NCBI RefSeq assembly: GCF_037042905.1 | Contig: NC_087252.1 | Coordinates: forward strand, 1,054,001-1,118,000 | Source of the DNA: Lytechinus pictus | Lineage: Eukaryota | Direction of reading: 5' to 3' | Length of the DNA stretch: 64,000 bases | Shown here: positions 55,537 to 57,894 of the stretch, in pieces | How the letters are laid out: every line of letters begins with the position of its first letter | Position numbering within the stretch: position 1 is the stretch's first letter | Translations under genes and position numbers: made by a program | Notes under the pieces: model-generated | What the model saw: the letters and a program-made list of their open reading frames with translations, nothing else | Database searches by the model: none | Told to the model about the DNA's origin: nothing

Positions 55537-55544
55537 TCAGCAAA
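55537..55544 (-). CDS. Prepropeptide gene B, stop-containing mini-exon (exon 55513-55544): (I)C-stop
   Basis: Acceptor ctcttttcatccgaagcag and donor gtatga at 55512. The downstream intron shares TTATACCATGTACA with the equivalent intron of gene A, identifying it as the homologous exon. Confidence 0.55.
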
Positions 55545-55908
55545 CTGCTTCGGATGAAAAGAGTTAATAGAATAACTATGTTGATGTGTGTATGAACTGA
55601 AAATATGCCCAGTGTTCGTACAAAATTCGACCAAAATTGTACTTAAATCCCTGGTCAATTTCACTCCAACCAACCATTGATTTAAAATGATTAGACATAC
55701 CGTAAACAGGCATGATACTCCAAATTTCATTCAAATTAGAAGTAAAATTATATGTATTATTGTACTCGTATTATCTCCTTATGGTGAAGTAAGATGATCA
55801 TACGTTTTTCGTACGGATTCACGATTATCGCAAGGTCGATAAGGTCTAATATATATTTTTTTTTCAAAATGGTAAGATCGTTTCCTTTAAATACATTGTA
55901 GGGACCAT

Positions 55909-56560
55909 TAAAGGGGCTTTCACAATTGCCCGTGCGATCGTTGCGATCATTAATACATGTTGCATAGAATCACAAAGGTCGTAAGCAGTCGCACTACCAA
56001 TTGTGAAAGGGACTTTACTCATGGTCATCATACGACTGTTGCAGGGGCATCGTAGCATCGTATAATACACATGCATCGTACGATAAACATAGGGTCATCA
56101 CACGTTCACCATATGGACATCGTACGATATCTGTAGCTCTCGGAACGGCCTCTTTACGACTTTTTCTCTGGTCCTTTACGACTCCCAACACATGAAATCG
56201 TACGGTTGTCGTAAATAATGTTAACATCAAAATTGTAGGCCGTGACGACAAAATACGATGCCCCTACAAAGCCGCAGACGAATCCATCCTACGATGATCG
56301 CAGCTAACATGCTAATGTAAAATGGGCATGAATGATGACATAGCGTGCAAGGGGGGACGGTGCGAATAAGGTGAATTTAATGACTTTGCACATAAACCCG
56401 TGACGACCTACGATCCCCTACAAGCCGTAGACGAATCTATCGTACGATGATCGCAGCTAACATGCTAATGCAAAGTCGGCATGAATGATGACATGGCGTG
56501 CAATGGGGAGAGGTGCGAATATGATACGTGAACGGCGAATTTACGGACTTTGCACATTGA
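55909..56560. repeat. Repeat remnant with an approximately 150-bp tandem duplication (about 56255-56390 vs 56410-56555)
   Basis: cccctacaa.gccg.agacgaatc.atc.tacgatgatcgcagctaacatgctaatg occurs twice. Confidence 0.7.
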
Positions 56561-56691
56561 TGAACACAAAGATGAAAAAGGATGGTAAGAGTACGAAACC
56601 TGACTCTCTTGGATGAAATATCACAAAAATAATGGTAATGAGAACATGGTGAATGATGATTTGTTATATTTATGAATCATGAACTACTTAC

Positions 56692-56853
56692 TGACGTACT
56701 TGGTATTGGCTATCATTCGGTTATCTTGCCGGTTGTTTGATTGTTTCGATTTCTGTTTCTGTTTCTTTTTCTTTTTCTCCTTCTGTTTCTTTTTCTTTTT
56801 TTCCTTCTCTTTCTTTTTCTTTTTATCCTTCTTTTTCCTTTTCTCCATTTCGT
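56692..56853 (-). CDS. Prepropeptide gene B, second coding exon: (N)EME-KR-poly-Lys peptide ...QSNNRQDNRMIANTKYV
   Basis: Acceptor cgatag at 56854-56855 and donor A|gtaagt; exactly 162 nt, phase 1-1, open frame. EMEKR mirrors DMSKR of gene A. Confidence 0.72.
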
Positions 56854-57674
56854 CTATCGATTGCGTTTGGTATAAAATGATAAGCAATAAAGTCAGAAAA
56901 TTCATTTCTTAAAGATAATCATGCCTAGATGGGCTGTACGGAGTCCCTAAGGTAACATACTGGCATAACATAATTTGTTCTGGATAACTCGTTCCCATTA
57001 AATACCTGGTTCTCTCGACATGTTCCCTAGATCTTTAACTCGTTCCGACAACTCGGCTAAATCATACGGCATTTTCTAATTTTACAGGGTGTGCACGCAA
57101 CCCTCACCCCTCCCCCCTCCTGCATCATTACCTGACTGTTACGAGGTTACCTTATGAGAACGAGTTATATGTCGAGAGAAAAGTTTAGGAATTCATGGCA
57201 ATTGGTTTGGCAAAAAGAAATCACGTCTCCTCGGGGGCTCCTTATAGATTTGCTTTTCAGCGGACCTTTTTGCACCTAATTTTCCATTGAAGACAGGGCA
57301 TACAGATTGAATTTTAATTACAGTCTATTTCTCCATTTAAAAATGTCGGCATATAACCGTTTCCATGTTGATATATATACATATTAGCTATAAAAAAAAT
57401 TATGAATGATATCAAACGCTTACTTGAAAAGCAAAATAGAGGAAAAGTAATTATGAAAGTAATCATAATACATTCAAATAAAATATTACCGGTGCCCTTT
57501 TTATAGTTGCTTTAAACTTGAAATCATAGTGTTCTTTTATATCATTGCATTGCATCTGCAAAATAACCTATTAACGAAATGAATAAATTCTTTTGTAGTA
57601 AGCTTCTGAAGAAAGAACGATACGAAGTAAATAGTTTGAAAAAATGACAACAATGATAAAGCCCTTTTACTTAC

Positions 57675-57894
57675 TGAAGTATCGTCTGTTGGCCTTGGCT
57701 CTGTTAGTATCTCTCTTGACTGCGAGTGAGGGTTGAAGACTGTCAATGAACTGGTCTAGCGAATACCCATCGAGTGCATACCCGCCATCGTCCGCATACC
57801 CATTGGCCATACCGTCATCGTCGAGGTCAATCATGGCGCATACAGACCCAACGAGGACGACAACGAGGGCGACTGCGAGTAGCTTTGAAGCCAT
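57675..57894 (-). CDS. Secreted prepropeptide gene B, first coding exon (signal peptide, acidic Gly/Tyr pro-region, KR)
   Basis: MASKLLAVALVVVLVGSVCA-MIDLDDDGMANGYADDGGYALDGYSLDQFIDSLQPSLAV-KR-DTNRAKANRRYF; acceptor gttatttcag at 57901-57902; phase-1 donor A|gtaagt. Confidence 0.88.

Follow-up and report, generated by a model that had tools for sequence, protein, structure and literature searches.

The DNA analysed here (the window) is a stretch of 64,000 nucleotides of Lytechinus pictus, a sea urchin. Its reverse strand carries a gene, here called gene B, for a four-cysteine peptide precursor that is still uncharacterised; an automatic model of it already exists. Elsewhere, positions 3010-17680 (+) hold an array of C-type lectin exons (Lectin_C, E 9e-16) with PAN-domain exons between them (E 5e-7), which continues upstream of the window, and positions 27589-41541 (+) hold pieces of a homeobox gene, presumably Barx/BarH-like, that is partly covered by contigs and has a partial Homeodomain match at 38276-38689 (E 0.011). 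Self-complementary MITE-like elements occur at 21578-22192, 51864-52020, 54055-54295 and 16108-16160, some with copies elsewhere in the window. A second small gene, gene A (49325-45311 (-)), is a spliced 73-aa precursor with exons at 48491-48283, 47500-47435 and from 46823; its joints appear in three of the four contig sets described below and its 5′ UTR joint in one. Gene A would release a short cysteine-free peptide that ends in GWRYG and a Gly-Lys-Lys amidation signal, a motif with no match in full-text literature.

Transcript evidence for gene B came from four public contig sets (X1-X4) from one study, whose records carry no RNA or tissue label and whose RNA nature is our guess. The contigs hold a small share of the region and were aligned to 52800-61500, and only GT-AG joints were relied upon. 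Contigs drop rare forms and the alignment tool skips the repeat described below; zero depth at 56583-56873 and 55419-55709 was not counted by itself, only joints that span both intervals. A GT-AG intron joins 57675 to 54949 in all four sets, and a second joins approximately 54871 to 53775, again in all four. The joint 61157-57900 is present in two sets, with a matching loose end in a third. The main splice path thus runs from the UTR exon to the signal/acidic exon, the cysteine exon and the last exon (Table 1). Contigs cover the 3′ UTR over 52800-53775 in X1 and from 53231 or 53283 to 53775 in X2-X4. The X1 contigs differ there from the genome (five substitutions and two gaps in one 823-nt contig), and are probably alleles.

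Table 1 Features of gene B and of the lysine-rich stretch within its 57675-54949 intron, in window coordinates
Feature	Position	Strand	Content	Evidence
5′ non-coding exon	61157..61236	(-)	5′ end approximate, set ~25 nt past a TATA-like box at 61261	Contig joints
First coding exon	57675..57900	(-)	ATG 57894; predicted signal of ~20 aa; acidic pro-region of 39 aa, net -9; KR at 57717; start of mature peptide; phase-1 donor	Covered and spliced in 4/4 contig sets
Possible 5′ extension of lysine exon	56854..56907	(-)	In-frame ATG 56905; hydrophobic signal-like stretch	Sequence only
Candidate lysine exon, short form	56692..56853	(-)	ATG 56848; MEKR; tract 56836-56744; strong phase-1 GTAAGT donor; weak acceptor	
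Cysteine exon	54872..54949	(-)	78 nt, phase 1-1; C-x9-C-W-C-x10-C	Spliced in 4/4 contig sets
Coding part of last exon	53758..53777	(-)	Gly-Lys-stop (predicted amidation signal)	Contigs and P0001
3′ UTR	52800..53757	(-)	Reaches at least the end of the stretch aligned	Contigs

Joined at their GT-AG boundaries, 57894-57675, 54949-54872 and 53777-53758 encode a 105-aa protein that is letter for letter the NCBI record P0001, an uncharacterised L. pictus protein that may come from the same genome and is therefore not independent. Two versions of the L. pictus record, P0001 and P0003, differ at residue 44 (Tyr or Asp; window 57765 region). The initial annotation had correctly recognised a prepropeptide gene with a signal, an acidic pro-region and KR. 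It had assigned to that gene a poly-lysine product, whereas the transcripts leave the lysine exon out, and their product is a four-cysteine peptide ending in Gly-Lys; both the 54949-54872 exon and the exon from 53777 had been missed.

The precursor has a hydrophobic N-terminus, judged to be a signal peptide by its hydropathy, followed by the acidic pro-region, KR at residues 60-61, RR at 70-71, four cysteines and the Gly-Lys end. All four cysteines come after the signal peptide, within one 24-residue span, and the mature part has a net charge of +5. In standard prohormone processing the signal is removed, the chain is cleaved at KR, the Lys is trimmed and the end is amidated at Gly. Processing of this kind would convert the 105-aa precursor into an amidated peptide of 42 residues and net +5, in which two disulfides are possible. 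Additional cleavage at RR would leave 32 residues, but the predicted 42-residue peptide is more likely, because the orthologues carry KK at the RR position. Several Tyr residues of the pro-region stand in an Asp-Gly context, in Strongylocentrotus purpuratus likewise; sulfation at these sites is a speculation.

Pfam has no family for P0001 or for the L. variegatus orthologue P0002, and the PDB gave no sequence match better than E 0.5. AlphaFold2, run on a two-sequence alignment, returned a low-confidence model with three strands (mean pLDDT 43.5), with which a Foldseek search gave no match at E ≤ 0.001. In the ESM Atlas the best feature score was 0.81 (DUF4543, a spider-toxin-like cluster and hepcidin-like), which is in the range of shuffled proteins, and residues 62-105 of the precursor had no match. 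The structural predictions were too weak to bear on the peptide's role. For the role of the main peptide we put cationic host defence at roughly an even chance, with a receptor ligand somewhat short of that. The acidic pro-piece and the strongly cationic paralogues point to host defence; that each species has a single well-conserved amidated orthologue speaks for signalling.

Nine proteins passed E 0.001 in the orthologue search, of which four long ones (P0008-P0011; 624-1394 aa, with repeated stretches) were dropped as compositional and one was a read-through. First-exon read-throughs into the intron (P0007 and P0012-P0018) were left out of the alignment. Orthologues are present in L. variegatus (P0002), S. 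purpuratus (P0005) and Diadema setosum (P0006), and the cysteines, QECWC and Gly-Lys are kept in them. None of the S. purpuratus and D. setosum records has a lysine tract. In L. variegatus an identical 101-aa protein is recorded under both LOC121419489 and LOC121420858, which may be a recent duplication or an assembly duplicate.

Four more loci in the L. pictus genome share with gene A (48464) a layout that opens with MASK and a signal, leads through an acidic region, KR and a spacer to MEKR or MSKR, and then has a basic start. The four loci form two near-identical pairs (C8:27179193 (-), C8:39572016 (+), C21:16371583 (+) and C21:16386013 (-)); those on C21 face each other, approximately 14 kb apart. 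In each of the four, the first exon as predicted from DNA closes with FF at a donor-like site of phase 1; MEKR stands before the basic mature peptide, and a candidate phase-1 exon with the pattern C-x8-CxC-x14-C and a net charge of +5 to +9 lies downstream. A pattern of this type at an exon start occurred three times in 328 kb of background, as gene B's own exon and two PAN domains. First-exon profiles cross-score modestly (6-16 bits), and the profile of the B-type cysteine exon did not single out those of the paralogues (best E value 0.2, over 1298 pieces), so the link between the cysteine exons rests on spacing and gene layout. Gene A and the four loci are likely to be distant members of the family, whose size here is a lower bound. 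The initial annotation had equated EMEKR in the lysine exon with DMSKR in gene A. EMEKR does match the family motif, but direct pairwise paralogy between genes A and B is weak (p 0.09 for protein and 0.23 for DNA, by segment-preserving shuffles) and is strengthened only when the wider family is considered; their UTR exons are not alike (p 0.82). A match at C14 in the same genome proved on inspection to be chance, as did two loci from a metagenome scan, both flanked by stops.

The lysine-rich stretch lies inside the 57675-54949 intron. As initially described, it can be read as a 162-nt exon of phase 1-1 with 23 Lys in 31 residues, encoded by a 6/24-nt purine repeat. It is skipped in all four contig sets (one study), and its acceptor at 56853 has a pyrimidine fraction of 0.41, compared with 0.71-0.82 at six contig-backed acceptors. 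The genome contains 56 matches to the tract, of which 38 loci were examined. Eleven of these 38 GA-rich look-alikes reach 20 or more Lys within 31 open codons, which makes the number of lysines by itself unremarkable; nor is the absence of Arg distinctive, as 5 of the 11 lysine-rich look-alikes also have none. MEKR is present in 5 of the 38, which had been picked by likeness to a query that contains MEKR. None of the 38 has an open frame between AG and GTRAG.

The 3′ end of the lysine exon resembles that of the first coding exon. Their last 13 codons score 28 by BLOSUM62, in register with the donor, with a next best score of 15 among 438 phase-1 donor-like sites in 164 kb, for a comparison length chosen after looking. 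A score of 28 was reached at 7 of 325,450 positions, two real ones included. The exon ends are identical at 31 of 60 bases, and the homology is confined to the 3′ ends, about 13-20 codons; a first-exon profile does not recognise the long lysine exon. The two are side-by-side exons of the same phase, homologous at their 3′ ends and with phase-1 donors. Lysine richness and MEKR are thus cheap by themselves, whereas the exon-like frame and the end homology are not. The lysine stretch is more than a microsatellite and, with its donor used in an L. variegatus gene model and its length unchanged between the species, behaves like a real exon.

A protein record from L. variegatus uses this exon. P0004 (XP_041469878.1, 84 aa, labelled 'PXR1-like isoform X1') starts at the ATG of the lysine exon and continues with the cysteine exon and the same end, without the signal exon, as known from the protein record alone. 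Such automatic gene models rest on RNA evidence. The accession adjoins that of the 101-aa isoform X2 of LOC121419489 (P0002), and we infer that both belong to one gene. PXR1 itself, which we take to carry a G-patch domain, is rejected as the identity of P0004: a Pfam scan gave no G-patch match and no family near the cut-off, with weak matches to the lysine tract only. No L. pictus protein record with the lysine form was found.

Between P0004 and the window, 49 of 52 lysine-exon residues are identical, including the first 45 (a comparison chosen after looking); there is no indel, and the three changes are all conservative or small. In the same species pair the expressed exons have two indels and disagree at 10 of the 99 residues aligned, and over whole exons the conservation of lysine and expressed exons does not differ (Fisher p 0.54). 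In a neutral simulation without indels, the frame stayed open with three or fewer changes in 65%, 40%, 10% and 2% of runs at divergences of 2, 3, 5 and 7%, respectively, which are assumed values for this close pair.

Three lysine forms keep the frame: a leaderless form of 84 aa, a form with its own signal of 103 aa, and one of 159 aa in which the exon is inserted behind the signal exon. When the UTR exon is joined to either candidate acceptor of the lysine exon, the first ATG is in the right frame. The leaderless form has a net charge of +25 and matches P0004 at 76 of 84 residues. With the 5′ extension, the lysine exon would have 71 codons, compared with 73 for the first coding exon, and hydropathy after ATG 56905 is 3.34, against 3.58 for the real signal. 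Such an upstream signal, which was noticed after looking, arises at 3 of 499 acceptor-like sites, at 102 of 64,852 sampled positions and at none of the 38 look-alikes. The extension is A+T-rich like the intron (GC 0.29 versus 0.53) and absent from P0004.

We favour, at about even probability, the explanation that tandem duplication made the lysine stretch an alternative first coding exon, seldom used, in which a poly-lysine tail replaces the acidic pro-region. The first coding exon would have been duplicated in tandem, and in the duplicate copy an in-frame 6/24-nt purine repeat would have taken over the acidic region. Minor transcripts would then use the lysine exon in place of the first coding exon and encode the same peptide with a poly-lysine tail. 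This explanation is favoured because P0004 uses the exon, the tract has no indel, the exon ends are homologous and none of the 38 look-alikes is exon-like, and also because MEKR precedes a basic mature peptide in all four paralogues. Against it, the evidence for inclusion is one automatic L. variegatus model, and the S. purpuratus and Diadema records are without the lysine form. If the stretch is an alternative first exon, the lysine form would, with slightly better than an even chance, be the leaderless protein, which would stay in the cell and probably be nuclear; the form starting at ATG 56905 would be a little less probable than that.

A less probable but credible explanation is that the stretch is a relic: a decayed copy of the first exon together with a GA-rich repeat expansion, which keeps a strong donor and is spliced as noise, with no functional protein. 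Skipping in every contig set and the weak acceptor would follow naturally, GA-rich look-alikes are as common and as lysine-rich as described above, and no lysine record was found for L. pictus; frame retention under neutrality is, moreover, not rare at low divergence. Decay sits poorly with zero indels and 45 identical residues in a slippage-prone repeat, when the expressed first exon has two indels, with three changes that are all conservative or small, and with an L. variegatus model that uses the exon.

More doubtful still is the inclusion of the 162-nt exon between the signal and cysteine exons, which would give a 159-aa secreted precursor from which MEKR frees a 78-residue peptide of poly-lysine and the cysteine part. 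Of the readings considered, it comes nearest to the initial annotation, given a corrected 3′ end. The exon is symmetric and in frame, and the product would copy the family layout of KR, a 13-14-residue spacer, EMEKR and a basic start. In-frame symmetry has a one in three chance, however, and P0004 starts at MEKR even though an included exon would open the frame back to the signal, as we read the choice of start in that model. We found no record of 129-184 aa that carries the signal exon with the lysine exon in L. pictus or L. variegatus, a blank that is weak evidence; a first-exon search among longer proteins likewise gave 0 of 227 candidates at E ≤ 1. The gene model first proposed (57894-57675, 56853-56692 and 55544-55537, encoding 129 aa and a cysteine-poor poly-lysine peptide) is largely refuted and very improbable: its pieces do join in frame with AG/GT ends and the acceptor at 55544, with a pyrimidine fraction of 0.65, is plausible, but in place of its junctions 57675/56853 and 56692/55544 the contigs of all four sets join 57675 to 54949, across a third exon (55537..55544 (-)) that lies within the intron and is absent from P0001, P0002 and P0004, all of which end in the cysteine exon and Gly-Lys.

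What the corrected gene model suggests is that a widely studied model animal has a family of small cysteine peptides yet to be characterised, one member of which is conserved across Lytechinus, Strongylocentrotus and Diadema. Were the lysine exon in use, a single gene would yield the peptide in two versions, with an N-terminal partner that is strongly acidic in one and strongly basic in the other. Such a change could decide whether the product is secreted or stays in the cell, or alter how it binds membranes, nucleic acids and glycans. In the form with its own signal, as in the 159-aa form, cleavage at MEKR would free an amidated 78-residue peptide of net +23. We consider it possible, though unlikely, that these genes constitute an undescribed sea urchin four-cysteine family, one gene of which has a charge-swap exon, and that a secreted lysine form cut in this way carries a polycation tail on the same disulfide domain.

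Full-text searches, with figures, supplements and subscription journals outside their scope, gave no motif or accession match for the four-cysteine family; the main sea urchin neuropeptide catalogues appear in subscription journals and may, we assume, hold the S. purpuratus orthologue. The predicted precursor resembles the strongylocins and centrocins in its signal, pro-sequence, cationic mature peptide and amidation signal of Gly and a basic residue. As described in the accessible text of PMC4805251, strongylocins have six cysteines in three disulfides, and centrocins have a heavy and a light chain, a 24-residue interchain piece and one disulfide. Gene B differs from the former in its four cysteines (C-x9-CxC-x9/10-C), from the latter, with one cysteine per chain, in having no interchain piece, and from both in its explicit KR site; the cysteine layout thus rules out identity with either. 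Tachyplesin-type β-hairpin antimicrobial peptides, of about 2.5 kDa with two antiparallel strands in the accessible text of PMC10608444, are rejected too, as the predicted peptide has 32-42 residues and three strands in the low-confidence model. The accessible text of an L. variegatus peptidomics paper (PMC4857251) holds no motif match, and that of a venom review (PMC12193733) no matching peptide.

The precursor has the features by which echinoderm neuropeptides are recognised in the accessible text of PMC9793003, namely a signal, dibasic sites and a C-terminal Gly. Like the echinoderm orphan precursors (Arnp, Ajnp and the PCNP series; PMC4772807, PMC6586643 and PMC9793003, as far as their accessible text goes), it is represented in the available records by one conserved orthologue in each species; its cysteine pattern is not in the text of these three papers, taken apart from their sequence figures and supplements. 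A secreted lysine form would resemble penaeidins and arasin 1, as outlined in the accessible part of PMC10608444, in combining a low-complexity N-terminal with a cysteine-rich C-terminal part. Penaeidins differ in their proline-rich part and six cysteines, and no sequence relation to the lysine form was found.

Alternative N-terminal exons that decide between secretion and retention are known from the IL-1 receptor antagonist, which has secreted and leaderless isoforms (accessible text of PMC2192137). That protein has a short leaderless N-terminus, unlike the poly-lysine tract here, and no sequence relation to it. Human tandem duplicated exon substitutions include 40 N-terminal events among 236, with mostly conservative changes, according to the accessible text of PMC9741552. 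As in those cases, neighbouring homologous exons in gene B would give alternative N-termini with a shared C-terminal part. Unlike in those cases, the two copies resemble each other at their 3′ ends only, while the net charge of the part between would turn from -9 to about +20; if true, this would be exon duplication with an unusually drastic effect.
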